Source: a virus (lineage: Duplodnaviria > Caudoviricetes). From it: a stretch of DNA of 64,000 bases. The notes beneath the pieces are model-generated. The model was not told the origin of the DNA. It worked only from the letters and a program-made list of their open reading frames with translations, and did no database searches. The position numbers were made by a program, and so were the translations under genes. The stretch covers positions 32,001 through 96,000 of IMG/VR virus record IMGVR_UViG_3300020576_006930. The stretch is one strand, 5' to 3'. Below, piece after piece: positions 6,609-29,429 of the stretch. Numbering within the stretch: position 1 is the stretch's first letter; every line of letters starts with the position of its first letter.

Positions 6609-6623
6609 TATTACTTAACGGTT

Positions 6624-13547: not shown

Positions 13548-13556
13548 ATTTTTAAT

Positions 13557-13634
13557 GGCGCTGTAGCCCAATTGGCAGGAGGCATCTGACTTAGGATCAG
13601 AGCAGTGAGGGTTCGACTCCCTTCGGCGCTACCA
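13557..13634 (+). tRNA. tRNA-Leu (TAG), short variable loop
   Basis: Loop CTTAGGA; CCA. Confidence 0.9.
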
Positions 13635-13648
13635 ATTTTAGTTAGAAT

Positions 13649-13725
13649 GGCATCGTAGCCCAACGGCAGGAGGCGCTTCACTCAAAACGAAGACAGTGCT
13701 GGTTCAAATCCAGTCGATGCTACCA
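13649..13725 (+). tRNA. tRNA-Leu (CAA), short variable loop
   Basis: Loop CTCAAAA; CCA. Confidence 0.9.
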
Positions 13726-13734
13726 AATTTTCAA

Positions 13735-13808
13735 GCCGGTGTAGTATAGTGATATTATAACGCATTGGTAATGCGATGACGGGAGTTTGATTCTCCCCGC
13801 TGGCTCCA
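13735..13808 (+). tRNA. tRNA-Thr (GGT)
   Basis: Loop TTGGTAA; CCA. Confidence 0.85.
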
Positions 13809-13815
13809 ATTTTAA

Positions 13816-13891
13816 GCCGCTGTGGCTCGACCGACAAGGCGCCTCATTTGTAATGAGGTTTATGCGGGTTTAATTCCTGCCAGCGGCTCCA
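13816..13891 (+). tRNA. tRNA-Thr (TGT)
   Basis: Loop TTTGTAA; CCA. Confidence 0.85.
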
Positions 13892-13895
13892 ATTT

Positions 13896-13970
13896 GCCTC
13901 TTTGGTGATAATGGCAGCATTTCTGTTTCGTACTCAGAAGGTATTAGTTCGATTCTAATAAGAGGCTCCA
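13896..13970 (+). tRNA. tRNA-Thr (CGT)
   Basis: Loop TTCGTAC; CCA. Confidence 0.85.
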
Positions 13971-13975
13971 ATTTT

Positions 13976-14049
13976 CGTTCGTTAGTTCACGGTAGAATAC
14001 CTAGTCGAAAGACTGGGAGAAGGTGGCTCTAACCCATCACGAACGACCA
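13976..14049 (+). ncRNA. tRNA-like RNA with a GAAA tetraloop in place of the anticodon loop
   Basis: Acceptor CGTTCGT/ACGAACG-A-CCA, D-arm, CCTAGTC-GAAA-GACTGGG arm, degenerate T-loop. Confidence 0.65.
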
Positions 14050-14051
14050 AC

Positions 14052-14127
14052 GTACCGTTAGGCAAATGGGAAGTCGGCAGTCTGCAAAACTGCTTTTGAG
14101 TTGGTTCGATTCCAACACGGTACTCCA
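14052..14127 (+). tRNA. tRNA-Cys (GCA)
   Basis: Loop CTGCAAA; U73; CCA. Confidence 0.9.
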
Positions 14128-15005: not shown

Positions 15006-15395
15006 ATGAGTTTTATGAAAACCCCCGACTTTACGGTACCTGAAATTCACCCGAAGGGGTGGGGTTACGAATTATGGTTGGTGAATAACAACAAGTATTG
15101 CGGTAAAATTCTTCATTTCAATAACGGCAAGCGATGTTCCTTTCATTACCATAAATTGAAAGAGGAACATTTTTATTGTTCTTCTGGGTCTTTCCTATTA
15201 AAATTGTCCTGGGGCGATGATATTACCAAGGCAGAAGAACGATTATTTGAATCGGGGCAAGTGGTAGAAATTCCCATAGGGTTAAGACATCAGATGATTG
15301 CTTTGCAAGATGGTAGTCAATTGATTGAAATATCCACCCAACATCTTGAGGATGATTCGTATCGGGTGGCTCCGGGAGATAGTCAGAAAGTATGA
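15006..15395 (+). CDS. cupin (mannose-6-phosphate isomerase-like)
   Basis: KGWGYE, SFHYHKLKEEHF, HQM, EISTQH..DDSYRV..GDSQ. Confidence 0.85.
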   Translation: MSFMKTPDFTVPEIHPKGWGYELWLVNNNKYCGKILHFNNGKRCSFHYHKLKEEHFYCSSGSFLLKLSWGDDITKAEERLFESGQVVEIPIGLRHQMIALQDGSQLIEISTQHLEDDSYRVAPGDSQKV

Positions 15396-15419: not shown

Positions 15420-15725
15420 ATGCCACTATTCAAAAAAATATCCGAAAACTGCTTTGAGGTGAATGAGGTCAAAGACTCATTATTGAAACAATTAGAAGCA
15501 AAGATCAAACAAAAATATCCCAATGTCGTGACATCGATTGATACTGATAGTGAGGGGAATCCAATTTTGGATATTGATACCGGCGAAACGAATTTTTATG
15601 TCAGTCAAGGACCAAATGAAAAATTTTCAGTTAGTGCGGTTTGGTCAAAAGATGAAAAAGGTAAAAAGAATTTAGATACGGATTCGATGGTGAAAGCAGT
15701 ATCGAGCATACCGGGAATGACTTAG
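15420..15725 (+). CDS. hypothetical protein
   Basis: 101 aa, after a TATTTAT motif. Confidence 0.7.
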   Translation: MPLFKKISENCFEVNEVKDSLLKQLEAKIKQKYPNVVTSIDTDSEGNPILDIDTGETNFYVSQGPNEKFSVSAVWSKDEKGKKNLDTDSMVKAVSSIPGMT

Positions 15726-15744
15726 AAATAAATTTTCAAAAAGC

Positions 15745-15910
15745 TTGACAAAAACAGGAAGTATGAGATACTTATTCCTGTAAGTGAGAAATAACAATAT
15801 GAACAATCGCTGGTTTAATAATATTCGTAGAAGGAATGGCGGAGGCTGAATAAGCCTACCGATAGCGAAAGCTTTCGCCCGCCACTCCAAAAGGGTGGCG
15901 GGCTTTTTGT
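15745..15910 (+). promoter_or_regulatory. promoter + leader peptide (MNNRWFNNIRRRNGGG, 15799-15849) + terminator: candidate attenuator of a tRNA operon
   Basis: TTGACA...GAGATACT promoter; terminator GCCCGCCACTC/GGGTGGCGGGC-TTTTT. Confidence 0.7.
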
Positions 15911-15929
15911 TTGTTCTTTGTCAATTTAT

Positions 15930-16003
15930 ATGTAGTTCGTATAATGGTATTACCTTCCTCTCCAAAAGGAAAGACAGGGGTTCGATTCCTCTACTACATG
16001 CCA
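15930..16003 (+). tRNA. tRNA-Trp (CCA)
   Basis: Loop CTCCAAA; CCA. Confidence 0.85.
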
Positions 16004-16013
16004 ATTTTTAGAT

Positions 16014-16088
16014 GCTCTTATAGTGAAATGGACATCACGGGACCCTGCGAAGGTCTAATTCCAAGTTCGAATCTTGGTAAGAGCGCCA
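16014..16088 (+). tRNA. tRNA-Arg (GCG)
   Basis: Loop CTGCGAA; CCA. Confidence 0.9.
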
Positions 16089-16097
16089 AATTTAAAT

Positions 16098-16174
16098 GCA
16101 CCCGTGGCGCAACTGGACAGCGCAAACGGCTTCTATCCGTAAGGTTGGGGGTTCGACTCCCTCCGGGTGTACCA
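16098..16174 (+). tRNA. tRNA-Arg (TCT)
   Basis: Loop CTTCTAT; CCA. Confidence 0.9.
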
Positions 16175-16179
16175 ATTTT

Positions 16180-16265
16180 GAGTGTGTGACCGATAAAGCT
16201 TAGTGGTAGATCGGCCTTGAACTGAGGCTCGGAACACATAGGTTCAAATCCTATCGCGCTCACCA
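16180..16265 (+). tRNA. atypical tRNA, anticodon uncertain (loop CCTTGAA)
   Basis: Acceptor, T-arm and CCA are clear; D-loop and variable region are enlarged. Confidence 0.55.
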
Positions 16266-16355
16266 ATTTCAGATGAACGAAAGTTCCCTAGTCTTGTGTA
16301 TTGGGCCGGTAAAAACTTTAGATTCCGGTATCTGATAAGAATTTTGTTTTAGGAT

Positions 16356-16431
16356 TCCTCTTTAGCATAACTGGTAATGCAGCACACTGTTAATGTGCCC
16401 TATGTTGGTTCAAATCCAACGGGAGGAGCCA
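16356..16431 (+). tRNA. tRNA-Asn (GTT)
   Basis: Loop CTGTTAA; CCA. Confidence 0.9.
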
Positions 16432-16492
16432 ATTTTAATAGCATAAAAAGTAGTAATTTTTCACAGGTAGTATATACTTATACTTGTGTGCT

Positions 16493-17089
16493 ATGAATAA
16501 AATATTACTAAAAAGATATGTTGATGAAGGACTTTCTATAAATGACATTTGTAAGAAGGTAGGTAAGGGAAACACCAGTATAAGATACTGGTTAAAAAAA
16601 TATAAACTAAAAACAAATTGGAAAGGTTCATTGGAAAGGAAAGTGCCAGATAATGAATTACTAAAAATAGCAAAAAATTCAAAAAGTTTTACTGATTGTT
16701 TGTTGAGAGTGAACGGAAATGCTGGCGGAGGTTCGTATTACTTTTACAAGAAAAGATTAGAAAAATTAAATTTTGATTTTTCAATATACAAAAATTTAAA
16801 CAGAATACCACTTTTTTTGGTTAGAAGCAATCAAGAAGCTATACAAAGAAAAAGAGGGTATAGGATCAGAAGAGAAAAATTACATTTGTATTTAAAATAC
16901 AATAATGTGGAATATAAATGTAGTAAATGCGGAATCTGTGAGTGGGAAGGGAAAAATTTGTTATTACATATTCATCATAAAGATGAAAATTCACAGAATA
17001 ATAAATTGGACAATTTATGTTATCTTTGCCCAAATTGTCATAATATACATCATTATAATGATGGTAAATTGGCTAACAAACTAATCTAG
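16493..17089 (+). CDS. HNH homing endonuclease with N-terminal HTH
   Basis: LHIHHKDENSQNNKLDNLCYLCPNCH; the stop lies inside tRNA-Phe. Confidence 0.9.
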   Translation: MNKILLKRYVDEGLSINDICKKVGKGNTSIRYWLKKYKLKTNWKGSLERKVPDNELLKIAKNSKSFTDCLLRVNGNAGGGSYYFYKKRLEKLNFDFSIYKNLNRIPLFLVRSNQEAIQRKRGYRIRREKLHLYLKYNNVEYKCSKCGICEWEGKNLLLHIHHKDENSQNNKLDNLCYLCPNCHNIHHYNDGKLANKLI

Positions 17090-17146
17090 TGAAAGTGCAT
17101 CCCTGAAGAGGATGAAAGCTCCGGGCAGAACGGAGGTTAGCCACCA
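17071..17146 (+). tRNA. tRNA-Phe (GAA)
   Basis: Loop CTGAAGA; atypical T-loop; CCA. Confidence 0.75.
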
Positions 17147-17156
17147 ATTTTTAAAT

Positions 17157-17231
17157 CCCGGGATAGTGTTAATGGAAGCACGTTAGATTGAAACCCTAAC
17201 AGAGACGGTTCGAATCCGTTATCCGGGACCA
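17157..17231 (+). tRNA. tRNA-Phe (GAA), second copy
   Basis: Loop TTGAAAC, with mismatches; CCA. Confidence 0.65.
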
Positions 17232-17295
17232 ATTACGTAGTTTTTCTACTTTCTACGACCCCAGCGTAACGGCTGAATCAAATAAAGTGGAATAT

Positions 17296-17370
17296 GCACC
17301 CATAGTGAAATGAATATCACGTTGCGCTTCGAACGCAACATTTCGGGTTTGAATCCTGATGGGTGTACCA
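17296..17370 (+). tRNA. tRNA-Arg (TCG)
   Basis: Loop CTTCGAA; CCA. Confidence 0.9.
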
Positions 17371-17374
17371 ATTT

Positions 17375-17499
17375 AGTAATGTAGTTAAAAGGTAGAATAT
17401 GGTCCGTGGAGGATAATAAGTTGCAACTTAATTCATTGACTATGCCGGCGGCGGGTTTGTCTGCTAATCGGTTGTGAGGTTCAAATCCACACCATTACT
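17375..17499 (+). ncRNA. tRNA scaffold with ~55-nt insert in the anticodon arm
   Basis: AGTAATG/CATTACT acceptor, D-arm and GGTTCAAATCC T-loop; no CCA. Confidence 0.55.
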
Positions 17500-17506
17500 T
17501 TAATTT

Positions 17507-17713
17507 ATGACCGAAGACGATGAGATACTGATTGAATGTAGTTGTTGCCATGACCTGTTCGATTTGGAACAGATGCGGATGAATGAAAATGGAAAATCGG
17601 TATCTTGTGATGAGTGTCGATCTGAAAATGGTAGTGTAGCTCAGTTGGCAGAGCGTAGTCTTGATAAGGCTCGGGTCGGGGGTTCGACTCCCTCCACTAC
17701 CACCAATTTTTAA
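17507..17713 (+). CDS. small zinc-finger protein reading through tRNA-Ile
   Basis: CSCC...CDEC; the last ~27 codons are tRNA sequence. Confidence 0.5.
   Translation: MTEDDEILIECSCCHDLFDLEQMRMNENGKSVSCDECRSENGSVAQLAERSLDKARVGGSTPSTTTNF
17630..17705 (+). tRNA. tRNA-Ile (GAT)
   Basis: Loop TTGATAA; CCA. Confidence 0.9.
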
Positions 17714-17717
17714 AAAC

Positions 17718-17794
17718 GCAACGGTAGCTCAATTGGATAGAGCGTTAGCCTCCGAAGCTAAAGGTTGTGGGTTCGACTCCCGCTCGTTGCACCA
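17718..17794 (+). tRNA. tRNA-Arg (CCG)
   Basis: Loop CTCCGAA; CCA. Confidence 0.92.
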
Positions 17795-17801
17795 AAATAA
17801 A

Positions 17802-18041
17802 ATGAAATTGGAATTAATCAAGCAAAAAAACAAAATATCATCGTATAAAATTAATGGCGAACACACTGAGTATGAGGTAGAGGGTCATGTTTTTTATGTA
17901 AAAGGGTACCCAGCATTTATGATTTTGGAGAATGGCGAAATCAATCCCATTACACCTAATGGAATGGTTATCTATTATGATAATAAAAAAGAATGCGATG
18001 AATGGTTGAAAAATGAAGCAATTAACTACCGAACAATTTAA
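17802..18041 (+). CDS. hypothetical protein
   Basis: ATG just after the tRNA. Confidence 0.6.
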   Translation: MKLELIKQKNKISSYKINGEHTEYEVEGHVFYVKGYPAFMILENGEINPITPNGMVIYYDNKKECDEWLKNEAINYRTI

Positions 18042-18222: not shown

Positions 18223-18227
18223 AAGTT

Positions 18228-19262
18228 ATGAACATTCTATTGGACAGAGACACATTCCGCAATGGGGTGTTCATGCGTGACAAAAACAAATGTGTCATTT
18301 GTGGGCAACCGGCTCAGGATGCGCATCACATTATTGAACGTAGATTATTTGACGATGGTGGTTATTATCTTGACAATGGCGCTTCATTATGTGCGACGTG
18401 TCATATTAAGGCCGAATCTACTGAGATTAGTTGCGAAGCTATCAGAGCAGGAGCTGGAATCGTGGACATTGTTTTGCCGCTTCACTTATATCGGGATAAT
18501 GTTTACGATAAGTGGGGCAACATAATCAATGTCAATGGCACGCGGCTGAAAGGCGAATTATTCGGTGATGTCAGTGTTCAGAAGATTTTGAAACAGGGTG
18601 GAGTTCTTAGCAAGTTTGTGGATTATGTAAAATATCCCCGCACTTACCATTTACCTTGGAGTGACGGTTTGACGAATGATGATCGGGTAATGACTCCGGA
18701 GGATTTAAAATTTTTAGAAGATAGTTCGGTGGTCGCTACGGAAAAAATGGATGGAGAAAATACCACCATTTATACCGATTACATTCACGCTCGTTCGGTG
18801 GATAGTCGTTCACATTGGACACAATCATATGTGCGCCAATTACAAAGTAAAATTGGACATGATATCCCAAAGGGTTGGCGGATTTGTGGTGAGAATCTTT
18901 ATGCCAAACATTCCATCAAGTATGATAAATTGGAAGATTTCTTTCTGATGTTTTCGATTTGGGATGACAAAAATCAGTGTTTGAGTTGGTTGGAAACCGT
19001 GGAATGGGCAAAGTTGTTGGGATTAAAAGTGGTAGACGTGTTCTTTGTCGGGCCGTGTTGGAAAGACACGGTACATAAGCTATATGAGGGCAATTCAAAA
19101 CATAAGCCCATTGAAGGTTATGTGGTCAGGACATTGAACGGTTTCTCTTATGGTAATTTTAGAAAATGTACTGGTAAATTTGTTAGAAAAAACCACGTCC
19201 AGACCAGTCACCACTGGCGGTTTGAGAAGATCGAAAAGAATGAGTTATCGTCCGTAGGGTGA
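18228..19262 (+). CDS. HNH domain-ATP-dependent RNA ligase fusion
   Basis: N-terminal CVIC..DAHHI...NGASLCATCH; C-terminal KYPRTYHLPWS, motif I EKMDGEN, GENLYA, EGYVVR, KFVR. Confidence 0.88.
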   Translation: MNILLDRDTFRNGVFMRDKNKCVICGQPAQDAHHIIERRLFDDGGYYLDNGASLCATCHIKAESTEISCEAIRAGAGIVDIVLPLHLYRDNVYDKWGNIINVNGTRLKGELFGDVSVQKILKQGGVLSKFVDYVKYPRTYHLPWSDGLTNDDRVMTPEDLKFLEDSSVVATEKMDGENTTIYTDYIHARSVDSRSHWTQSYVRQLQSKIGHDIPKGWRICGENLYAKHSIKYDKLEDFFLMFSIWDDKNQCLSWLETVEWAKLLGLKVVDVFFVGPCWKDTVHKLYEGNSKHKPIEGYVVRTLNGFSYGNFRKCTGKFVRKNHVQTSHHWRFEKIEKNELSSVG

Positions 19263-19380
19263 ATTTTAAATAAACTAATCGTAAAAAAGTTTCGAAAGTT
19301 GTTGACGAAAAGTTAAAATGGTATATACTTATTCTTGAGTTGAGACGGCATCGGTAAAGACAACGAATAAAAAACGGTGC

Positions 19381-19550
19381 TTGACAACAAAGAATTTCGG
19401 TGTACAATATACACCATAAGAAAATGAATATTAGTTCAAAACATCAATATAAGGATAGTGAACCAGCAGGAGGCGGTGCATAAAGCACATCCTGAAGCGT
19501 AAAGCTTTATGACCGCCATCCTCTAATACAGGGTGGCGGTTTTTTATTTT
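19381..19550 (+). promoter_or_regulatory. promoter + leader peptide (MNISSKHQYKDSEPAGGGA, 19424-19483) + terminator: second candidate attenuator
   Basis: TTGACA...TACAAT promoter; terminator ACCGCCATCCT/AGGGTGGCGGT-TTTTT. Confidence 0.7.
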
Positions 19551-19763
19551 TAAGAGTAGTAAAGTCAAGCTGGACTTAAAACGGAGTATGAGATAGCACT
19601 CAAGAAACGCTGTTCGTTGAAACCGAAAGGTAGTGAACGATAAATCCATAAAGCAGACGGCTCACGCGATTCCGTCGTTTATGGCTTCAAAAAGAAGGCG
19701 TGATTGAGTGAAAGCCCACCCGGAAGTAGGCTTGACGTTAGCGGAGAGACGCTTTTTAATTTC

Positions 19764-19849
19764 GCGAGTATGCGCCGAGCTGGCCGATGGCACCGGACTT
19801 TTAATCCGGTATATAAACACCGTGGGTTCGAATCCCACTGCTCGCACCA
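19764..19849 (+). tRNA. tRNA-Lys (TTT) with long variable region
   Basis: CCGGA-CTTTTAA-TCCGG, 12-nt variable region; CCA. Confidence 0.8.
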
Positions 19850-19902
19850 TTTTACTTTTAAGATTTTTTGTATTTTAAAAGTCATTCATGATATTTATAT
19901 GT

Positions 19903-20370
19903 ATGAAGAAATGCTATACATGCCAACAAGAAAAAGAAACGGTGGAATTTAACAAAAGTAAATGTCGTAAAGACGGGTTGAATTCTATTTGTAAAGAATG
20001 TTCTAAAAAACGGAGTAAACAATATTACAAGGAAAATACCGAATATCATAGAAAAGCGGTCTATCGAAATAAACAACAGTACGGAGAACAATTGAGGGGC
20101 TGGATATCCGATTTAAAATCGGGAGGGTGTTGTATATGTGGTGAGAAAGAGATATGTTGTTTGGATTTTCATCATATCGATTCAAAAACAAAAGATTTTG
20201 CTATTTCAAGTTTGGTATACAATCTATCCAGAAAAAAACTAGGGAATGAATTGACTAAGTGTGCAATAGTGTGCTCAAATTGTCACAGAAAAATTCACAT
20301 AGGCGTTTTAAAAAACCCTATTGATAAAAAACTAGAAAACATATCCATACCGAATTTAACAGTGAATTAA
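19903..20370 (+). CDS. HNH endonuclease
   Basis: CYTC/CKEC finger; LDFHHID...KCAIVCSNCHRKIH. Confidence 0.88.
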   Translation: MKKCYTCQQEKETVEFNKSKCRKDGLNSICKECSKKRSKQYYKENTEYHRKAVYRNKQQYGEQLRGWISDLKSGGCCICGEKEICCLDFHHIDSKTKDFAISSLVYNLSRKKLGNELTKCAIVCSNCHRKIHIGVLKNPIDKKLENISIPNLTVN

Positions 20371-20399
20371 TTTTCAAACGAATTCAAAACAATTTTAAT

Positions 20400-20476
20400 G
20401 CAGTTGAAGCCATGATGGACCGGCACCCGGCTTTTACCCGGATATGGAGTGGGTTCGATTCTCACCGACTGCACCA
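20400..20476 (+). tRNA. tRNA-Lys (TTT)
   Basis: Loop CTTTTAC; CCA. Confidence 0.85.
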
Positions 20477-20485
20477 ATTTTAAAC

Positions 20486-20562
20486 GCGCTCGATGCTACA
20501 GTGGATCGGCACCCGGCTCTTACCCGGATATGATGAGGTTTCAACTACCTCCGAGCGCACCA
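20486..20562 (+). tRNA. tRNA-Lys (CTT)
   Basis: Loop CTCTTAC; CCA. Confidence 0.75.
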
Positions 20563-20918
20563 ATTTCTGATTCCCCCATATCAACAATCACCGTTTTTCC
20601 CAACGGTTCAAATTTGTTGACCAAATCCGGATTTATTTCCCGTGGGGGAATCAATTTTAATTTAACAATTTTGCCTCAGTCCAGACGGCCTACTTCTAGT
20701 TAAGCACAGACGAAGTAATGAAGAAATGGAGTCTGGGTGCTCTGAGTGCAAATTCATTCGCCAGTTATCTAATCTGGTGCCAACAGCAATCAGGAAAATT
20801 AAAACATTCGTAGGAAGCTATGCTGACCGCAAGAGTGTTTTGGTTGGAATGGTTGGGCCGCTGTTCTGAAAACAAAATTATACGGGGCCGTTCACACCCC
20901 GTTGACAAAGTGAACAAT

Positions 20919-21005
20919 GGTAGGGTATCCAAATGGCTAAAGGACACGGTCTGTAAAACCGCCGCTCAAAAGGCTTTGTGAGTTCGAATCTCATCCCTAC
21001 CACCA
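20919..21005 (+). tRNA. tRNA-Tyr (GTA)
   Basis: Loop CTGTAAA, long variable arm; CCA. Confidence 0.9.
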
Positions 21006-21010
21006 ATTTA

Positions 21011-21065
21011 AAGATGCCAACAGCAAACAAAAATTCAATTATAATGAAAAAAAGATGGCATCTTG
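21011..21065 (+). repeat. ACAGCAA RNA module (related copies at 20776, 23193, 25053, 33767)
   Basis: AAGATGCCA-ACAGCAA...TGGCATCTT-G closing helix. Confidence 0.75.
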
Positions 21066-21103
21066 TTTTAGAACCCTCTATTTATATGGGAGAGGTCTAA
21101 TTT

Positions 21104-21529
21104 ATGAAAAAATTTAATTGTTTATATTGTAAAAAAGAAAAAACACACCAATCGTCTCAGTCTATGGGGAAATATTGTTCGGCAAAATGTCAACAAAATT
21201 TTCAAATAGAGAAAAAAATGGAAAGTGGAAATTGTTTGTATACTCCGGGAATAAGAAATTGGTGTTATAATAATTTAAAACAGGTATGTGATGTGTGTGA
21301 TACGGGATTAATATGGAATAATAAACCGCTGAGATTACAAGTCGATCACAGAAATGGAAATTCCAGAGATAACCGTAGAAATAATTTAAGAATGATTTGT
21401 CCCAATTGTCACACCCAAACCGAAAATTGGGGGATAAAAAACGCATCTCCTGAGGGAGTTGAAAAAATGGTAGTTGCGGGGAAATTAACACAAAAGAATT
21501 TTTGGTCATATAAAGTAATAGTAACCTAA
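21104..21529 (+). CDS. HNH homing endonuclease
   Basis: LQVDHRNGNSRDNRRNNLRMICPNCH; the stop lies inside tRNA-Asp. Confidence 0.9.
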   Translation: MKKFNCLYCKKEKTHQSSQSMGKYCSAKCQQNFQIEKKMESGNCLYTPGIRNWCYNNLKQVCDVCDTGLIWNNKPLRLQVDHRNGNSRDNRRNNLRMICPNCHTQTENWGIKNASPEGVEKMVVAGKLTQKNFWSYKVIVT

Positions 21530-21577
21530 CGCACTGTCTATGCGAAGTCCGGGGAGCGTAACCCCGTATGACCGCCA
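21504..21577 (+). tRNA. tRNA-Asp (GTC)
   Basis: Loop CTGTCTA; atypical T-loop; CCA. Confidence 0.75.
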
Positions 21578-21763
21578 TTTTGATCTGTTGGCTAATCCAC
21601 CTTGCTACGCATTGAGTATGGATCGTAGAGCACGCGGACGGTTTGAATGAATCCCGAACAAGTAGGCTACTAACCGAAAAGTAAGGCTGAGTGAGAAAAC
21701 CGGTGCTTGAAACTGATGATTGGCTTAGTAACCAATAAGCGTTCTGACAGATTAATTTTTTAT

Positions 21764-21837
21764 ACCCCTTTGTTGTAGTGGTAGCAAAGTTCTCTTTGAA
21801 AGAAAAAGTGGTGGTTCGATTCCATCAAGGGGTGCCA
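21764..21837 (+). tRNA. tRNA-Gln (TTG)
   Basis: Loop CTTTGAA; CCA. Confidence 0.85.
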
Positions 21838-22041
21838 ATTTAATGGGTGTACAGTAGTTCAATAAATGGGATAGACATAAAAAGTCTGGGTAGCGCCTCA
21901 GTCCAATTATGGAACCAGTATGAAATCCCCTAGTCGTTGAGAATCTGAGAACACAGAATGAGATAGACGTTCACGCTGAACGGAATATTGTGAAATCCTC
22001 TAGTAAGTGATACGCTGTAAATCAGCGGCCCCATATTTTAT

Positions 22042-22115
22042 GTTCCGGTCGATTAATGGTAGGTCACTGCCCTTTCAAGGCGGGAGCGGGAGTTCGATTC
22101 TCCCTCGGAACACCA
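22042..22115 (+). tRNA. tRNA-Glu (TTC)
   Basis: Loop CTTTCAA; CCA. Confidence 0.9.
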
Positions 22116-22123
22116 TTTTTAAT

Positions 22124-22196
22124 GCTCCTATGATGTAATGCAACATCTTCGGCCGATTACCGAAGCTTGGTGGTTCAAGTCCACCTGGGAGTACCA
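22124..22196 (+). tRNA. tRNA-Ile (GAT), C33 variant
   Basis: Loop CCGATTA; CCA. Confidence 0.7.
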
Positions 22197-22202
22197 ATTT
22201 AC

Positions 22203-22279
22203 GGCCCCATCGTCTATATGTGTTAGGACATCATGTTCTCAACATGAAAAATAGGGTTCAAATCCCAATGGGGCTACCA
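22203..22279 (+). tRNA. tRNA-Glu (CTC)
   Basis: Loop TTCTCAA; CCA. Confidence 0.85.
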
Positions 22280-22361
22280 ATTTCGAATTCCCTGAGTGAG
22301 TCCGCAATTCTATACCGTGATATTCGACGGTGAATGTGGGTTAAACACACCGGGCATTTAC

Positions 22362-22437
22362 GGCCCCGTCGTCTAGAGGACAAGGATTGCGGATTCTCAA
22401 TTCGCGGAACTCGGTTTGATCCCGAGCGGGGCTACCA
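22362..22437 (+). tRNA. tRNA-Glu (CTC), second copy
   Basis: Loop TTCTCAA; CCA. Confidence 0.8.
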
Positions 22438-22439
22438 AT

Positions 22440-22670
22440 TTACATGGGCTTTTTCCATTCCTCAGACTCTTTCAATTCTTTTATAAATTGTTCGTGACGA
22501 TTAAGCCCGACAAGATTTTCATATAATTTTAAGGCTTCAGCGGACATACAATTTACTGACGCATTTTGGATTTTCTTTTGGGTGGTGTATTTTGATGAAT
22601 TTGTAATCATAATTTTTTCAGTGATATTCCGTTTACGGGATGTAATATCAAGGTGGGAAGTATATCTCAT
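22440..22670 (-). CDS. hypothetical protein (antisense within the tRNA island)
   Basis: AT-rich 76-aa ORF filling the gap between tRNAs. Confidence 0.5.
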   Translation of the reverse strand: MRYTSHLDITSRKRNITEKIMITNSSKYTTQKKIQNASVNCMSAEALKLYENLVGLNRHEQFIKELKESEEWKKPM

Positions 22671-22848
22671 TCTTGAAAAGAAGATATGGGGTTAAACCCC
22701 ATTAGGTAATACCCTACTAATCCAATTTCCATAAGCTATGAACCAACAAATAAACAACGGCATTAGATGGTTGTAACGGGTGCGAAGTCCGACCCAATGA
22801 ACATAATTCATTGGTGTAAGCCAGACATAGTAAAGTGGAAAGATTTAT

Positions 22849-22923
22849 TCCAGAGTAGTGTCAAAGTAGCACACGCGGCTGTTAACCGTGTTAGTGTTGG
22901 TGCGAGTCCAACTTCTGGAGCCA
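22849..22923 (+). tRNA. tRNA-Asn (GTT)
   Basis: Loop CTGTTAA; CCA. Confidence 0.85.
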
Positions 22924-23192
22924 ATTTTTGTTGCGCTAACGGGCTAGAGTAAAGTAACTCAGTCGCCTTTATAAGCGAAAGATAGTAGGTTAACGCCCTA
23001 TATGACCCGCAGGTATCTCTAAGACATGAGGTCGCAACAAAACGATTTTCAACACCGATAAATAACGATGCTGTTATATTTCCGGACCAACGGTTGACCG
23101 ACAAAAACAGCATCGGTTTTGAACCTATTAGTTCAACGCATGATGAATGTGAGGATGAGAAGTTAGCTCACGATAAAATCTTCTCCACTTTT

Positions 23193-23248
23193 AAGATGCC
23201 AACAGCAACCAAATCACTTGCCTGTTAAGCAAAAAAGATGGCATCTTG
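23193..23248 (+). repeat. ACAGCAA RNA module carrying an Asn-type anticodon stem-loop
   Basis: TTGC-CTGTTAA-GCAA inside the AAGATGCCA/TGGCATCTT helix. Confidence 0.75.
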
Positions 23249-23486
23249 TTTTTATGGTCGGCGTCTGAATCTGCTGGTGAGGTTAGCTTCATAGGATGAT
23301 AATAATGACGAGTTAACCCGGCCGCCGATTTTTTGAAGGAACTGGCGGACTGAGATGTGTATAGTTGAGGTCCGATAGACAATGCCAGCCTTCAATTTTA
23401 TGGTGATATTCATTTGATTTTTTTGTTTTGGTGATGATATTTATCAGCAAATACGTCGTATTTACGATGTCAAAACAAAGGTTTAA

Positions 23487-23711
23487 ATGAAAAAATATCA
23501 AGAAATTAGTCATTATATCAAATTTAAAGCTCGTAATGGAGATGGAGAAGTGATATCGATAGTAGAGGATGTAGATAAAGCGAAATTTATTTATGATTCT
23601 TTAGAAGAAATCCCCCCGTTCGGTCCAGATAAAATTATGGTAGAAAATAATAGAATGTGGAAAGTAATTAAACAAGACGGATTAACTATTCTAGCCAAAA
23701 CTCTAAAATAA
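23487..23711 (+). CDS. hypothetical protein
   Basis: 74 aa. Confidence 0.6.
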   Translation: MKKYQEISHYIKFKARNGDGEVISIVEDVDKAKFIYDSLEEIPPFGPDKIMVENNRMWKVIKQDGLTILAKTLK

Positions 23712-23772
23712 TTTAGTAAAAAATACGGATTCAAATCGGTTTTTCCTCCCCATCGATAATACTTATTGGCAT

Positions 23773-24678
23773 ATGAAAATGGGAGTCGTAAAATGTAGTC
23801 GGTGTCGTAAAGAATTCGAAAAACCCCAATCTGAGATTAAGAGAATGGTAAAAAGAAAATGGGTAAACCATTTTTGTGGTACCAAATGTCTTTCTGAATT
23901 CGGCGTGGTGTTTCGGAAGAAACTTTCCGATGAAAGAATAAAATCGTATTATCTTTCTCCTAAGAAATGTCCAAATTGTGATTCAGTCATTCCACACGAA
24001 GACAAATCACAAAAAACATATTGTTCATCAAAATGTTTCGGTATCCATTCTCAAAAAAACGGTGGCCATTGTCATTGGTCAGATGAAGATAAAGAACGCT
24101 TACGGCAACAAGCCAAAAACAATCCCAAATTTGTTCCGGGGTGGAATAGAGGGAAACGGTATGCTCCAACAATTACATTAAAATGTAGAAATTGTGGGGG
24201 TGATTTTATACAAACAATTTCCAAAATAAATTCTAATAAAACGCAAACTTGCGGAAAAGAATGTAGAAGAAAATTACAATCTATCAATTTACTTAACCAG
24301 TACAAAAATGGGAAGAAAGTATATGGCGGAACAACCAAGTGGTTAAAATACAAAGATATAAAAGTTCAGGGCTCATATGAATATAGAACTTGTCAAATCT
24401 TAGACCGTTGGCAACAGGTCAATAAAATTAAAAAATGGGAATATACAAACGATAGATTTGAGTATATAGGAACTGACGGGAATAACCACAATTACTTGAT
24501 GGATTTCAAGATATGGAATAACGATGGTTCTTTTTATTATCTAGAAACTAAAGGATATGAAAAAGAAAATGATAGGTTGAAATGGAAATCTGTCGTGGAT
24601 GCCGGATACAAATTGGATGTGTGGTTTGATCCTGATATTAGACAGAGAGAAAAAGAATTTATGGAGGTTGTAGCATAA
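23773..24678 (+). CDS. homing endonuclease: Cys-finger repeats + TnsA-like PD-(D/E)xK domain
   Basis: Repeated CxxC...(F/Y)CxxxC; GSYE...YLMDF...YLETKG; the stop lies inside tRNA-His. Confidence 0.8.
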   Translation: MKMGVVKCSRCRKEFEKPQSEIKRMVKRKWVNHFCGTKCLSEFGVVFRKKLSDERIKSYYLSPKKCPNCDSVIPHEDKSQKTYCSSKCFGIHSQKNGGHCHWSDEDKERLRQQAKNNPKFVPGWNRGKRYAPTITLKCRNCGGDFIQTISKINSNKTQTCGKECRRKLQSINLLNQYKNGKKVYGGTTKWLKYKDIKVQGSYEYRTCQILDRWQQVNKIKKWEYTNDRFEYIGTDGNNHNYLMDFKIWNNDGSFYYLETKGYEKENDRLKWKSVVDAGYKLDVWFDPDIRQREKEFMEVVA

Positions 24679-24741
24679 CTGGTTAATGTCCTAGGTTGTG
24701 AACCTAGTTTTATGCGGATTCGAATTCCGTCAACCTCCCCA
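24663..24741 (+). tRNA. tRNA-His (GTG) with encoded G-1
   Basis: Loop TTGTGAA; G-1:C73; CCA. Confidence 0.9.
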
Positions 24742-25052
24742 ATTTCAGCGGACTCAGTCGCATAGCTACGACTGGATACAACACAACTGAGCCACGACGC
24801 GGAGATGAAGCTCGAGCTTTAATAAGTCAATGTGATCGCAGTTGAAACCGCTGTCGTATTTCCAATGGAATGAGTATCTGATTAAAAACACAAGGAGAGA
24901 GATTGTTCCGCTGCAGCGGACAGACCTCCGTGAAATCCTCCCGAAGTTTAGGAGAAAGTTCCTTTTTAGTTTACGCCAGGTTAGGGATGGATTATTCCTC
25001 ACGGAAGTCTCAATTGACAAGCGAGCGTCCAGAAACCCACTGGCTGAAATTT

Positions 25053-25166
25053 TAGATGCGGACAGCAAGCAATCGATTATGTCAAACTCTTAGTGTGGGT
25101 TCGAATCCCATGTATGGTGTAATGGTAGCACAGGAGTCCCGCAAGGGAATCAAAAAACGCATCTAG
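25053..25166 (+). ncRNA. ACAGCAA module containing a circularly permuted tRNA elbow (YrlA/Y-RNA-like)
   Basis: The T-arm GTGGG-TTCGAAT-CCCAT precedes the D-arm GTGT-AATGGTA-GCAC; both are closed by ACTCT/GGAGT. Confidence 0.7.
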
Positions 25167-25351
25167 TTTTTCGAGTAGTAATAATAGGAAGTGACCAATC
25201 GGTATCCGCCTCATGAATGTAACCCAGGACTGGTAGCCTGTCGTGCGAGCAAGTTAATCCCTCGCTGGTGAAAGGGTAGGACAAGTTGATACCGGCGTAT
25301 TATTATGAGCGGTAGTTGGGACCTGATAAGTTCACAAACCATTCGATTTAT

Positions 25352-25425
25352 GGCCCATTCGTCTATCAGCAGGACCACTCGTTTTCAGCGAGAAGAGGCC
25401 GGAGCGTCACCGGCATGGGCTACCA
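25352..25425 (+). tRNA. tRNA-Glu (TTC)
   Basis: Loop TTTTCAG; atypical T-loop; CCA. Confidence 0.75.
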
Positions 25426-25779
25426 CTTTCGGCAGTCATAGGGAGTCATGACCTTAGAACACTCATGTTGTGTTATGCTCTGAAATAAAGTCACATTAAA
25501 AATTAAGATAAATACATGTATAATCAAAATAAGTAGATGTGATGGACACGTAAGAGAGACTGCGACCATTTCGGGTATGTCTTGGGAGAGTTATCGGGTT
25601 CAATTCCCGAATAGTCCACCATACGGGCTATGGGATGGTCCTGTCGCTAGCGACAAAAGCGGGTTCGATCCCCGTCATATCCATTGATTTGACCCGGAGA
25701 ATATCCGATAAATACGACACTTGGTTGGGTGCTATTCCAGAAGCTTAAAATACCCTTCAAAAGACGGGTCACCAATTTC

Positions 25780-25854
25780 GCAGTATTGATGCTAGTGGCA
25801 ACATGCGGCTTTCCCAAAGCTGATTCGTCAGTTCGATTCTGATATACTGCTCCA
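25780..25854 (+). tRNA. tRNA-Gly (CCC)
   Basis: Loop TTCCCAA; U73; CCA. Confidence 0.88.
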
Positions 25855-25858
25855 TTTC

Positions 25859-25956
25859 GCCGGTTTGGTCTAACCACCTCTTAATCGGGGACGGACGGTT
25901 TGGAAAGACGGCCGGGTTAGCCCCGGACAACGTAGGTTCAAATCCTACAATCGGCT
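25859..25956 (+). ncRNA. tRNA scaffold with D-loop insert
   Basis: GCCGGTT/AATCGGC acceptor, canonical T-arm, ~30-nt helix within the D-loop. Confidence 0.55.
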
Positions 25957-26130
25957 CGAATTTACGGGGTTACAAGGAAAGGTTCGGTAAACGAAAACTA
26001 GGCCCATTTCAACAAACGCAAGCTCCGGAATAATGTACAACCCTTGCCTGAGATGGATTGGTGGTGAACACCATTTAAGTAGACCGTTACTGATCAGCGG
26101 TTCGATTCCGCTTATCTCCACCATTTATAA

Positions 26131-26206
26131 CGGAGTGTCGCCTAGTGGTATGGCGCTTGTTTCGGGAACAAGAATAACGGGAGTTCGATTCTCCCCACTC
26201 CGACCA
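26131..26206 (+). tRNA. tRNA-Pro (CGG)
   Basis: Loop TTCGGGA; CCA. Confidence 0.9.
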
Positions 26207-26212
26207 GTTTAT

Positions 26213-26289
26213 CGCCTGATCGTTTAAAAAACTAAGACACCGACCCTTGGGGTCGGAAATGCCAAGGTAAAGTCTGGCAAAGGCGACCA
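26213..26289 (+). tRNA. atypical/pseudo tRNA (loop CCTTGGG)
   Basis: Cloverleaf with degenerate T-loop; CCA. Confidence 0.5.
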
Positions 26290-26446
26290 TTTATGCCATC
26301 CAGGATCGGGTGCAATTCCCTTTACACAGAGTACTCTAGCGTGAATCTGTGGGTGGCCCATTTTAACGGACTTGTCTTTTGATAAGGATGTAATGTAACC
26401 AGACACCAAATCGTGGGCCTGATAATCCCGTTCCGTTTTACTATTT

Positions 26447-26878
26447 ATGAATATGGAGTACAAATCGTTTTTCAATTATCTAAAAGAAGGTGTGGAAAAA
26501 TATCTCATTTGGCAGCCGACCGGAATTTTCCGGGCGATGGTTGATTATTTAGATACTTTAACCTCATCAAACAACGAGGTCTATCGGGGAGCCTCCGATA
26601 AGGAAATTTCTATATTGAAAAATACCAAAGTTTTTAAATCCAACGGCAAAGGTAATACCCGGGATAATGCCGGGACATATGTTTCCGCAGATATCCATTT
26701 AGCCGCCGCTTTTGCGCTGAGATATTACCGGGATGGCCACGGAGGTTCGGTGCTCGTTTTAGAAAAGAGCAAATTACCTGAATTAGTCGCCCGCGATCCT
26801 GGAAATTTTACCGTGGACCATGTTCCACTGGAAGCGGTAAAACGCATCATCAATTTAAAAGACTTTACCGGTCGATGA
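26447..26878 (+). CDS. hypothetical protein, possible ADP-ribosyltransferase-like fold
   Basis: VYRG ... GTYVSADIHLAAAFA ... GGSVLVLE pattern. Confidence 0.45.
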   Translation: MNMEYKSFFNYLKEGVEKYLIWQPTGIFRAMVDYLDTLTSSNNEVYRGASDKEISILKNTKVFKSNGKGNTRDNAGTYVSADIHLAAAFALRYYRDGHGGSVLVLEKSKLPELVARDPGNFTVDHVPLEAVKRIINLKDFTGR

Positions 26879-27137
26879 AGGAAAGACAATACTGGCTGGG
26901 GTGAGATTCCCCTCATAAGGCCAATTATTGGAAAGAGAAGCACCTTCCAGGGTGTGATGGTACGACGGTACCGTAGTGAAATCCCTTCGTCAAATGTAAA
27001 AATGAGAGAGATAATAGATGGGAACCTGATGTGGTGTAATTGGCAGCACAGCCTTTAAAGGCAGGTTGAGGTTCAATTCCTCACGACTAGGCCATCTTAA
27101 TGAACATTCGTGAAATCCTCATCTAATTTTTTAGTTC

Positions 27138-27214
27138 GGGGTGGTAGCTTAATTGGTTAAAGCGGCAGCCTGTCACGTTGTAGACTGGGGGTTCGAGTCC
27201 CCTTCATCCCGCCA
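27138..27214 (+). tRNA. tRNA-Asp (GTC)
   Basis: Loop CTGTCAC; CCA. Confidence 0.9.
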
Positions 27215-27545
27215 TTTTATGATTGAGTCCGGAGCCATCGTCCGCGGTGATGGCCGGAGAGTTCCAAACTGAACACTCAATCGCCACTTTAGTTACAAAG
27301 AGAAGATGGAGCTGGTAATAATTATTGTCATTATATTACCCCTCTCCGTGAAAGATGATTCCTGTGTAGAAAGCCAGGACAGATTGTAGTTGCACTGGTA
27401 AATGGTGCAATCGATTGGTTTGACAACCAAAGCAAAGAATACCTTGCATAAAGGTCGGAAACTATAACAACACCTAACTAATGTTGTAGGAGGTTCCCGT
27501 AAAGGTGCTTGTAATATAGCCTAGCAATCCTTTGTAACTTATTTT

Positions 27546-27682
27546 GCCATGCTAGTTCAATGTAGAACCCATCTCTTAAAAAGCCGATAGTCTCCCTGAA
27601 CGGAGAAGTTAGTGGGGTGTTTGCCCTGCGATGTAATTAGGCCAGATGAACTGCTAGTGCCAAGTCTAGCGCATGGCTCCCA
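27546..27682 (+). ncRNA. tRNA scaffold with ~60-nt insert in the anticodon loop (CT-TAA-AA)
   Basis: GCCATGC/GCATGGC acceptor, D-arm, and CATCT/AGATG stem enclosing the insert. Confidence 0.65.
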
Positions 27683-27883
27683 TTTTGGACAACCCTGGCC
27701 TTTGACGCCGGGGGCTGATGAAGGACGAGTCTCTCCGATTGAATATCGCAGGTGTTAGACCACTTAGATATTCGTTTCAGTGTCCGATCTTTTTTCCAAA
27801 TTTTTTATTGATTAGTTTAAAGTATATAACTCAATTCATACTTGAACTATTACGATAATCCTAATCAATTGATTTAACAAATT

Positions 27884-28732
27884 ATGTATAAAACCAACCG
27901 TGCCTTTACGCTCATCGAACTTTTAGTCGTCATTGCCATAATAGGCATCCTGGCGGTCATGCTGCTGCCCACCTTGACCAGGAGCAAGAATACCGCTAAT
28001 GGTATAATCTGTATGAATAATGGGCGCCAACTTTCTCTGGGTTGGTTAATGTATGCACACGATAACAACGAACGAATTGTCTATGCGAGTGATGATGGTC
28101 TGGGTCCAGTTAATCCACTAAATCAATTTGCCTGGACACAGAGTCATATGGATTATGACCCAAACAACCAAGCAAACTGGGATATCACCATTGATATTAT
28201 GGTCGGCCCCCTGTGGAGTTACAATCGTAACGCTAAAATTTACAAATGTCCTGGAGATAAATCCGTCGTCTTGGTAGATGGGGTAGAAAAGCCACGTGTA
28301 CGTAGCATCTGTATGAATTTGTATATGGGAGGTTATGCTGGAACCGACGGTGGATCGTGGTATGTCCGGCAAAACTATGTTTATTTGAAAACCACCGATT
28401 TAAATCTACGCACCTCCCCCGGCCCAGCTAAAACCTTTTTGTTTTTGGATCAGCGTGAAGATACAATCAACTGGGGAAATTTTCAAGTTCATATGATTGG
28501 TTACATTAACCATAATGGTAGTATGTATGGTTTTTATCAAGATATGCCTGGAATGTATCATAATAACGCAGCCGGGATAAGTTTTGCGGATGGGCACTCG
28601 GAAATTCACAAATGGAAAGATCCCCGGACGACGCCGCCCATTCAGAAAAACATCGCCGTAATTGGATATGTGGAATCCCAATATAACAAAGATGTTGAGT
28701 GGCTACAAGAACGAGCCACTAGGCCAAAATAA
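27884..28732 (+). CDS. prepilin-type N-methylation / H-X9-DG domain protein (PVC-type pseudopilin)
   Basis: AFTLIELLVVIAIIGILAVMLLP, CMNNGRQL, YKCPGD, HNNAAGISFADGH. Confidence 0.9.
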   Translation: MYKTNRAFTLIELLVVIAIIGILAVMLLPTLTRSKNTANGIICMNNGRQLSLGWLMYAHDNNERIVYASDDGLGPVNPLNQFAWTQSHMDYDPNNQANWDITIDIMVGPLWSYNRNAKIYKCPGDKSVVLVDGVEKPRVRSICMNLYMGGYAGTDGGSWYVRQNYVYLKTTDLNLRTSPGPAKTFLFLDQREDTINWGNFQVHMIGYINHNGSMYGFYQDMPGMYHNNAAGISFADGHSEIHKWKDPRTTPPIQKNIAVIGYVESQYNKDVEWLQERATRPK

Positions 28733-28738
28733 TTTTAT

Positions 28739-28894
28739 GCTCGTGAGTAAGGAACTACCCGTTGAACTCCCAGATCGTGCCCAAGCTAAGATCTTCGAAT
28801 CTGGTGGTGGACTGCTGCTAATCCCAGTGAAGTTACCATTTTGGAGGAATGCCTCATGCACGGATTGTCAGTTCGATTCTGACTGCGAGCTCCA
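28739..28894 (+). ncRNA. tRNA acceptor/T-arm shell with ~120-nt non-tRNA interior
   Basis: GCTCGTG/TGCGAGC-T-CCA, GTCAG-TTCGATT-CTGAC. Confidence 0.6.
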
Positions 28895-29052
28895 TTTCTT
28901 TTATATTTATATAAAGTCAAGAGAATAATTTATGGAAAGTGAAATGACAGGATCATTAACAAAACCGAAGCGTGAAATACCGTGGTATGATCCAGAGTGG
29001 TATCAGGAATGGCTTCGGCAACAAAGACAAAAAAACATTTCCATCAATCAAA

Positions 29053-29130
29053 CAGAATGTAGTGTAGCTTGGCCAACACGCTAGTCTGGGGGACTAGAAA
29101 CCGGGAGTTCAAATCTCCCCATTCTGACCA
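29053..29130 (+). tRNA. tRNA-Pro (GGG)
   Basis: Loop CTGGGGG; CCA. Confidence 0.9.
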
Positions 29131-29134
29131 TTTT

Positions 29135-29347
29135 ATGAAGCAGAAAACACATAAGAAAAACCGGTTCCATCTAGTCGCTTTTTTAAAAGATATTGTCCGG
29201 CAGCCCATTGTAAAAAAAGCCTTGGGTTATCTTGTGGTCGCGTTGATCGGCTATGTTGTCAATCACATCCAGACCGATTCGACTATTAATAAGTTAAAAA
29301 CGGATAATACCGATTTAACATGGGCAGTGGACTATTTTCGTAAGTAA
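29135..29347 (+). CDS. small membrane protein
   Basis: Basic N-terminus plus one transmembrane helix. Confidence 0.6.
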   Translation: MKQKTHKKNRFHLVAFLKDIVRQPIVKKALGYLVVALIGYVVNHIQTDSTINKLKTDNTDLTWAVDYFRK

Positions 29348-29354
29348 CATTTAC

Positions 29355-29429
29355 GGACCTATGGTGAAATGAATATCACTGGGATTTCCTAAATCTCTAT
29401 TTCCGGTTTGACTCCGGATAGGTCTACCA
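29355..29429 (+). tRNA. tRNA-Arg (CCT)
   Basis: Loop TTCCTAA; CCA. Confidence 0.85.

Follow-up and report, generated by a model that had tools for sequence, protein, structure and literature searches.

We found that a tRNA operon of an uncultured large phage is preceded by a short leader gene whose codons match the tRNAs behind it and whose last codons mimic one arm of an intrinsic terminator, and predicted folds and codon statistics make it likely that this operon is controlled by codon-specific, ribosome-mediated (leader-peptide) transcription attenuation. This trp-style reading is supported computationally, because the leader unit (W1) shows both codon match and fold, because a second copy (W2) and seven analogues share its geometry, and because the leaders track their own arrays. 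The analysed stretch of DNA, hereafter the window, comprises 64,000 nt of a viral record that consists of one contig of 139 kb. It contains one tmRNA gene and over 40 genes for tRNAs, each of them on the plus strand; W1 and W2 (19381-19551) are the only copies in this genome. To our knowledge, leader-peptide attenuation is established for amino-acid and synthetase genes, not for tRNA genes. A full-text literature search found no published account of attenuation of tRNA genes, in agreement with the initial annotation of this DNA, which knew of no description for phage tRNA arrays.

W1 (15745-15913) consists of a promoter (P1), a 16-codon open reading frame (ORF), two small hairpins and an 11-bp terminator, all 5' of the tRNA-Trp gene (Table 1). 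Promoter, ORF, AGC-GAAA-GCT hairpin and the terminator before the tRNAs were each found where the initial annotation had placed them. P1 lies between the stop of the upstream gene (15725) and the leader ORF, which has its own start, 26 nt past the -10 of P1, and thus stands between the promoter and the regulated genes, an arrangement seen in nine of the nine units described below. The terminator ends 27 nt 5' of tRNA-Trp, whose start is at 15930. The Gly codons of the leader had been described as complementary to the terminator 5' arm; the pairing is real, but the segment involved is GGA-A-TGGCGG (15833-15842) and not the Gly codons alone. It is composed of the end of an AGG Arg codon, an Asn codon and the first 1.7 Gly codons, with CCGCCA-C-TCC as its partner, and the remaining AGGCT of the Gly codons goes into hairpin A (15843-15857). 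Both hairpins may act as pause signals, hairpin B as a pause or nucleation hairpin.

Table 1. Positions of predicted features in the window and of the conserved element in related phages
Feature	Position	Strand	Details
Promoter P1	15745..15772	+	TTGACA 15745-15750, 16-nt spacer, GATACT 15767-15772, TG extension; 10/12 score
W1 leader ORF	15799..15849	+	ATG 15799 to TGA 15847-15849, 16 codons + stop, peptide MNNRWFNNIRRRNGGG
W1 antiterminator 5' strand	15833..15842	+	GGAATGGCGG; inside last ORF codons, mimics terminator 3' arm
W1 hairpin A	15843..15857	+	AGGCU / AGCCU, stop codon UGA in loop; predicted fold
W1 hairpin B	15860..15877	+	AGC-GAAA-GCT core 15864-15873, extended by CGA/TCG, GNRA-type loop; predicted fold
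W1 intrinsic terminator	15877..15913	+	11-bp stem (9 G-C) 15877-15903, loop CAAAA, then TTTTTGTTTG; -22.3 kcal/mol
Promoter-like site after W1 terminator	15918..15945	+	TTGTCA-16-TATAAT, -10 is D-loop of tRNA-Trp; 11/12 score; a caveat, not a proven part
Array 1	15930..17794	+	Trp(cca), Arg(gcg), Arg(tct), Asn(gtt), Phe(gaa), Arg(tcg), Ile(gat), Arg(ccg)
HNH endonuclease gene	16484..17089	+	within array 1
HNH-RNA ligase gene	18228..19262	+	last of same-strand unit before next strong terminator
W2 tandem promoters	19302..19408	+	TTGACG-16-TATACT 19302-19329; TTGACA-16-TACAAT 19381-19408
W2 leader ORF	19424..19483	+	MNISSKHQYKDSEPAGGGA
W2 switch	19467..19551	+	antiterminator 19467-19486 with 19504-19522, overlapping terminator 19511-19541 + T run; predicted
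W2 tRNAs	19764..29429	+	Lys x3, Tyr, Ser, Glu, Ile, Glu x2, Asn, His, Gly, Pro, Asp, Pro, Arg(cct)
Recurrent promoter class	5590-5623, 6583-6611, 13429-13459, 15745-15775, 19302-19332, 29438-29469, 33700-33733		seven in window
Conserved post-terminator element (relatives)	L014:15290-15370, L022:11730-11800, L128:15090-15170, L104:3330-3400 (-), L124:14690-14760		

The W1 ORF has no Shine-Dalgarno sequence, which is normal here, because GGAG or GAGG stands upstream of only 4% of the long ORFs of this phage. Upstream of the long-ORF starts of the genome the sequence is G-poor, and T occupies position -1 in 72%. This suggests a host with Shine-Dalgarno-independent initiation, although the promoters are sigma-70-like. 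The opposite strand at W1 holds nothing but a 72-aa ORF (15672-15890), which runs across the promoter, the leader and the terminator; as PHROG gave no family match for it, we rejected this ORF as spurious, also in view of the overlap. Just upstream of the attenuator, at 15006-15395, lies an unexpected metabolic gene encoding a cupin protein (phrog_7851 'cysteine dioxygenase', 2.8e-45). For a 101-aa ORF upstream, the related-locus search found no relative.

The codon content of the leader fits the downstream tRNAs closely. All five amino acids of array 1 (N, R, W, F, I) are represented in the W1 leader, the complete set is already covered by N N R W F N N I R, the nine sense codons at its beginning, and 12 of its 15 residues, including 12 of 12 before GGG, belong to these five. 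With a background of 0.23, taken from this genome's amino-acid frequencies, 12/15 corresponds to a binomial p of 4e-6, and an equal or better match was seen in only 0.15% of 651 short decoy ORFs from the same genome. Each of the 12 codons ahead of the Gly codons is decodable by an array 1 anticodon. A leader rich in Arg, Asn, Trp, Phe and Ile codons that match the downstream tRNAs, as first described by eye, thus holds up statistically. Like the leader of an attenuator, which is enriched for the end product of the pathway, the W1 leader is enriched for its tRNA set, if that set is taken as the 'end product'.

The same leader is predicted to take part in a structural switch. When the nascent RNA was folded at full length, hairpins A and B and the terminator formed; when it was cut before the terminator 3' arm, the predicted structure was a three-way antiterminator domain (15833-15888) that encloses both hairpins, with hairpin B inside it. 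Here, GGAATGGCGG at 15833-15842 pairs with CCGCCACTCC at 15879-15888, that is, GGA-A-UGGCGG with CCGCCA-C-UCC, so that 9 of the 11 nt of the terminator 5' arm are sequestered. Folding of the alternative structures, which had been proposed as a check, thus yields an antiterminator of -26.7 kcal/mol and a terminator of -22.3 kcal/mol that use the 5' arm in a mutually exclusive manner. The simple duplex between the W1 mimic and the 5' arm reaches -13.5 kcal/mol, only the 14th percentile of control terminators, and in the model it is the complete three-way domain that makes the antiterminator strong. No pairing that sequesters 15833-15842, i.e. no anti-antiterminator of the 1:2 type, appeared when the 5' part was folded. 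In contrast to the trp leader, read-through would therefore be expected if the leader is not translated.

The effect of a translating ribosome was simulated by moving a masked footprint of 27 nt along the ORF, codon by codon. The W1 domain stayed intact (-28 kcal/mol) as long as the A site was at codons 1-8; at codon 9 (Ile) it was weakened to 7 of 11 arm nt and -23.0 kcal/mol, at codon 10 (CGU Arg) to 6 of 11 and -23.6 kcal/mol, and from codon 11 to the stop it dropped to between -18 and -9 kcal/mol, below the terminator's -22.3; when the mask covered the last codons or the stop, about -9 to -12 kcal/mol were left. All five amino-acid types are held by codons 2-9. Stalls at the last three sensor codons (AGA, AGG, AAT) mask the antiterminator and favour termination in the simulation, which is a weak point of the model. 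Folds and masks together bear out in silico the initial proposal that a ribosome that has finished the leader masks the antiterminator, and that a stalled or absent one allows it to form.

W2 repeats this design ahead of a second tRNA block. Of the 13 leader residues before the antiterminator part, 12 have a tRNA in 19764-29429 (p 0.011). This segment ends where the next leaderless promoter (29438) begins, and it is only against tRNAs delimited in this way that the match reaches significance (p 0.01-0.03). Compared with decoy ORFs, the W2 leader ranks at 0.5% for match plus coverage. Its predicted antiterminator has 18 bp, -25.6 kcal/mol and a fold z of -4.4, and in the mask simulation the domain was intact with the A site at codons 1-12 and lost from there to the stop. 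The counterpart of hairpin A, GUGC/GCAC with UAA in the loop, is a compensatory change relative to W1, and hairpin B has its counterpart in AAGC-GUAAA-GCUU. The proximal promoter leaves a 5' UTR of about 9 nt.

Neither W1 nor W2 has detectable homologues in IMG/VR or the JGI metagenomes. GenBank phages gave matches at the level of tRNAs only and no relative of the W1 region, and a terminator-based pattern retrieved 19 matches from IMG/VR, all of them unrelated ordinary terminators. A pattern of hairpin B plus 5' arm matched 3 times in IMG/VR and 6 times in JGI metagenomes, in each case by chance in coding DNA without tRNAs. Since homologues of W1 and W2 were not found, we looked for analogues in related phages. 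With the RNA ligase gene (18228-19262) as bait, 80 loci of 100-450-kb phages were collected from IMG/VR, and five records plus two further ones were extended. A blind scan then took terminators within 450 nt of a tRNA and sought an upstream complement of their 5' arm.

Seven further units in five other huge-phage records emerged, which brings the total to nine units in six records. They represent seven independent families: W1, W2, L006, B (L014, L022, L128), G003-A (L104:3469-3620:-), G004-1 (L107:5935-6129:-) and L012. Their geometry is shared and their sequences are unrelated, as the 3' end of the short ORF mimics the 3' arm of the unit's own terminator each time, with mimic sequences that differ by unit (GGCGG, CCGGAGGGTC, CCCTCAGT, CCCGAG, AGAGGGTC) and end 2-19 nt before the stop codon. 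Folds of the truncated RNAs pair the last ORF codons with the unit's own 5' arm over 8-18 bp, L012 having a weak helix of 5 bp. The duplex between upstream window and 5' arm amounts to -13.5 to -22.9 kcal/mol in the units, compared with a mean of -9.9 in 176 control terminators (Mann-Whitney p 2.6e-6). When match and coverage are scored together against decoy ORFs, each unit falls within the top 0-1%, the combined Fisher p for the match between leader and array is 7e-17 across the seven families and 4e-13 without this window, and the leader residues that do not match are concentrated in the antiterminator-forming part. As judged from these sequences, the predicted device recurs in several huge-phage lineages.

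Individual units illustrate how closely leaders and arrays correspond. The L006 leader, ending in MRREHREFDIIERPEGHRD, precedes an array of Phe, Asp, Ile, Glu, Glu, Arg, His and Arg tRNAs and matches it in 16 of 18 residues; p is 5e-8 for the short form and 0.02 for the longest ORF, and when the ORF is read from the first ATG the match is confined to the last 19 codons. Leaders of the B family (MRT.FRNITMK.WQ..CQRTVVRFER.HDNT...) stand before arrays of His, Thr, Glu, Lys, Asn ... Cys, Trp, Phe. Their frame is kept by in-frame indels and synonymous changes, and replacements remain within the array's amino-acid set; the leader of L014/G006 has Trp and Phe codons for which matching tRNAs were not found in its array. 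A back-translated CQRT.VRFE pattern retrieved the B family only, in the three known records and one new one. G003 has two leaders: G003-A, MLSLSTLSSLSYSPAVTLPGGIASAVGSTTRV, is made of L/S/T/Y/P/A/V/G/I and precedes Val-Tyr-Gly-Leu-Phe-Pro-Thr-Ile-Ser-Ala, with 30 of 31 residues matching, and the other, K/N/W/Q/D/C/R/T/V/F/E/H, precedes His-Thr-Glu-Lys-Asn-...-Cys-Trp-Phe, with 33 of 33 consecutive codons decodable. The two leaders of the G004 units (G004-1, L012) likewise split the amino acids as their arrays do.

The statistics do not include the A-type unit of G006, whose terminator and mimic are both weak, and no such leader was found in the related huge phages G005 and G008-G010. Three candidates, L019, L028 and G001b (oriented position 93047), were rejected as ordinary gene ends; they have no mimic, and a promoter stands between terminator and tRNAs. 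Between the attenuator terminator and the first tRNA, the relatives share a conserved element, AACAAAA..TGGACCGC, followed by a variable hairpin and GAGTGCGA(TAAAGGCAAGATTTTGG), which is present in exactly two copies in G006, one per attenuator. It could be a processing or protein-binding site, has no Rfam match and is not evident in this window.

Downstream of W1, the plus-strand terminator candidates from 15903 to 19511 are all weak: one lies within a tRNA (14076), and a candidate of 6 bp lies at 19248. The HNH-RNA ligase at the end of this unit fuses PF01844 to PF09414 (Pfam RNA_ligase 2.9e-29; phrog_24030 1e-128), and in many huge phages its homologues adjoin tRNA arrays; this suggests a role in tRNA repair. 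Between Arg(tct) and Asn of array 1, a tRNA-like sequence (16180-16265) with a good acceptor stem, T arm and CCA was called by relaxed ARAGORN as Gln(ttg) of 86 nt and has no Rfam match. If real, it would be the sole array 1 member without a codon in leader 1; CAA occurs in leader 2. As the relaxed ARAGORN runs gave many implausible intron-containing calls, we used only Gln(ctg) and Val(gac) from them, both supported by Rfam. A tRNA with anticodon CTA at 32060-32135 is an amber suppressor, labelled 'Pyl' by ARAGORN, with two copies each in G003 and G006; the relative G001 has a tRNA with anticodon TCA, and the leader stops in this window are TGA and TAA. Rfam searches of 12000-38000 at E up to 1 returned nothing but tRNAs and chance matches, none of them at the attenuators, and no match to the RNase P family, including at 34653-35004.

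P1 belongs to a promoter class of this genome with the form TTGACN, 16-17 nt, NATACTTAT, which heads the tmRNA, the W1 leader and two leaderless tRNA units. Its -10 plus discriminator, ATACTTAT, combined with a TTGAC -35, occurs at 5616, 6604 (tmRNA), 13452, 15768, 19325, 29462 and 33726. The class recurs at seven sites in the window, and P1 therefore looks like a regular phage promoter; taken together, these promoters look as if the host polymerase read them as a single temporal class. The two leaderless tRNA units have neither leader nor terminator ahead of their tRNAs, and in both the promoter stands directly before the first tRNA. One (13429-14127) encodes Met-like, Leu, Leu, Thr x3 and Cys, and the other (29438-30531), which is closed by a 19-bp terminator (30486-30531), encodes Ser, Ser, Val and Val. 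The amino acids L, T, C and V of these units are missing from both leaders. The tag of the phage tmRNA (6624-7026) is unusually long and ends in AVAA (EKSNAKSLNRLANLGFAFNLNATEVAVAA), and this tmRNA is served by a promoter of its own (6583-6610). A strong terminator upstream of it (6276-6299) was considered as a third attenuator and rejected, being the ordinary end of gene 5654-6232.

Promoters behind the terminators deserve particular attention, as an internal promoter driving the tRNAs had been named at the outset as an observation that would speak against attenuation. A promoter-like site is indeed present at 15918-15945, but it cannot make tRNA-Trp, because its -10 falls in the D-loop of this tRNA; the D-loop, TATAATGG, is shared with three other tRNAs, all without a -35. 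This removes the objection only in part, since the site could provide basal transcription of the later tRNAs. Consensus promoters also stand between terminator and first tRNA in both G004 units, and because such sites follow the terminators here and there, the tRNAs may not depend solely on read-through. The E. coli trp operon has an internal promoter, and by analogy attenuated read-through may add to a basal level in the phage.

The mechanism we propose would start with a host-type RNA polymerase that initiates at P1 and transcribes the 16-codon ORF. Slow decoding at a sampled codon, caused by a scarce aminoacyl-tRNA, or the absence of a ribosome would leave the last codons free to pair with the emerging 5' arm, so that the -26.7 kcal/mol domain forms in place of the terminator. 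Polymerase would then continue into the eight tRNA genes (Trp, Arg, Arg, Asn, Phe, Arg, Ile, Arg) and into that of the HNH-RNA ligase. With fast decoding, a ribosome at the Gly codons or the stop would cover the antiterminator strand, the terminator would form and transcription would stop at the T run. The outcome would be a negative feedback in which each tRNA set is made when its own codons are read slowly and switched off when the supply is sufficient, and W2 would exert equivalent control over the Lys/Tyr/Ser/Glu/Ile/Asn/His/Gly/Pro/Asp block.

Translation might also control the switch in a less specific way, if the attenuator is translation-coupled but senses general translation capacity, such as ribosome availability, host shut-off or infection stage, with codon choice being secondary. 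The antiterminator is predicted to form by default without a ribosome, no anti-antiterminator opposes it, and with short 5' UTRs lacking a Shine-Dalgarno sequence the efficiency of ribosome loading could be the controlled step. This reading is nevertheless improbable, as it leaves unexplained why each leader is confined almost entirely to amino acids and codons served by its own array, and why the amino acids are divided between two leaders of one phage in the same way as between their arrays (Fisher p 7e-17). The matching of amino acids and codons, highly significant as it is, would be altogether meaningless if the ORF were untranslated and P1 to terminator formed a short non-coding RNA gene or an insulating terminator, with the tRNAs arising from other promoters or constitutive leak. 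Small RNAs typically come from units that measure about 125 nt from promoter to terminator, and the missing Shine-Dalgarno sequence, the promoter-like site after the W1 terminator and the consensus promoters after the G004 terminators would all suit such a gene; we nevertheless give it a very low probability, since the B family keeps its frame by in-frame indels and synonymous changes, the -10 of 15918-15945 lies inside tRNA-Trp and no Rfam family matches. That W1 is merely the ordinary terminator of the upstream gene cluster, preceded by chance by a short ORF, is barely credible: short ORFs are common and the simple mimic score of W1 is unexceptional, but the upstream stop (15725) is separated from the ORF by P1, only 0.15% of decoys do as well as this ORF, and W2 and seven analogues share the geometry.

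Codon-specific attenuation, if it operates as modelled, bears on the reasons for the large tRNA sets of phages and on the regulation of these sets. The phage would measure the decoding speed of specific codons and feed the result back on tRNA production, the array would be the unit of regulation, and the leader sequence would tell which tRNAs share a transcription unit. Such a device would be a natural multi-codon sensor of tRNA availability. A more speculative extension, which we consider rather unlikely, is a modular self-tuning tRNA supply in which W1 perhaps serves as an inducible counter to host tRNA depletion or anticodon-nuclease defence. The W1 unit may be such a counter-measure because it also carries an RNA ligase: loss or cleavage of host Arg, Asn, Trp, Phe or Ile tRNAs would switch on replacement tRNAs together with a repair enzyme. 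A link of the tRNA arrays and RNA ligases of phages to counter-defence would follow if cleavage of host tRNAs is what triggers the switch. In a homeostatic role, the roster leader would audit codon by codon whether the infected cell still decodes the codons of the array.

Leader-peptide attenuators of amino-acid operons include trpL, hisL, pheL, leuL, thrL and the multivalent ilvL of E. coli and Salmonella. The pheL leader-peptide attenuator is covered in PMC3082878. Like W1, these attenuators combine a promoter, an ORF with the sensed codons, an intrinsic terminator and an exclusive antiterminator that uses the 5' arm, with the ribosome position deciding between them, and the phage units have the structural features of leader-peptide attenuators, the exceptions being the 1:2 element and the type of gene under control. 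In the trp attenuator, the terminator outweighs the single competing helix and the competitor forms first, an energy relation to which that predicted for W1 appears similar. The genes controlled are enzymes in the amino-acid operons and here would be eight tRNAs, an HNH endonuclease and an RNA ligase. Classical leaders contain a run of codons for one or three amino acids, whereas the phage leaders present a roster of up to 14, mostly with one or a few codons each. The antiterminator 5' strand, located downstream of the stop in classical leaders, lies inside the last ORF codons in the phage units, which are also without an evident 1:2 anti-antiterminator or pause hairpin. In mycobacteria, amino-acid-responsive attenuators with leaderless polycysteine short ORFs have been described (bioRxiv 10.1101/834739). 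They resemble W2 in their very short or absent 5' UTR and differ from the phage units in responding to one amino acid and controlling protein-coding operons.

Other systems that adjust the translation apparatus to its own supply offer further points of comparison. The E. coli pheST attenuator, with its Phe-rich pheM leader, controls phenylalanyl-tRNA synthetase and, like W1, ties a translation component to the supply of charged tRNA; pheST senses one amino acid and controls a synthetase, whereas W1 would sense several and control the tRNAs themselves. T-box riboswitches (RF00230) are also terminator/antiterminator switches that respond to the state of specific tRNAs, but they bind uncharged tRNA directly via a specifier codon and the T-box sequence, without translation. 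A T-box identity of W1 was rejected, with no match to the T-box model in the Rfam search of 12000-38000 at E up to 1 and an ORF in place of Stem I. Bacterial rRNA and tRNA operons are under stringent and growth-rate control at the promoter level (ppGpp/DksA, iNTP) and under Nus-factor antitermination, and their control, like that proposed for W1, fits tRNA output to translational demand. It acts on initiation or by processive antitermination and is global, whereas the control proposed for W1 would be specific for codons and tRNA sets.
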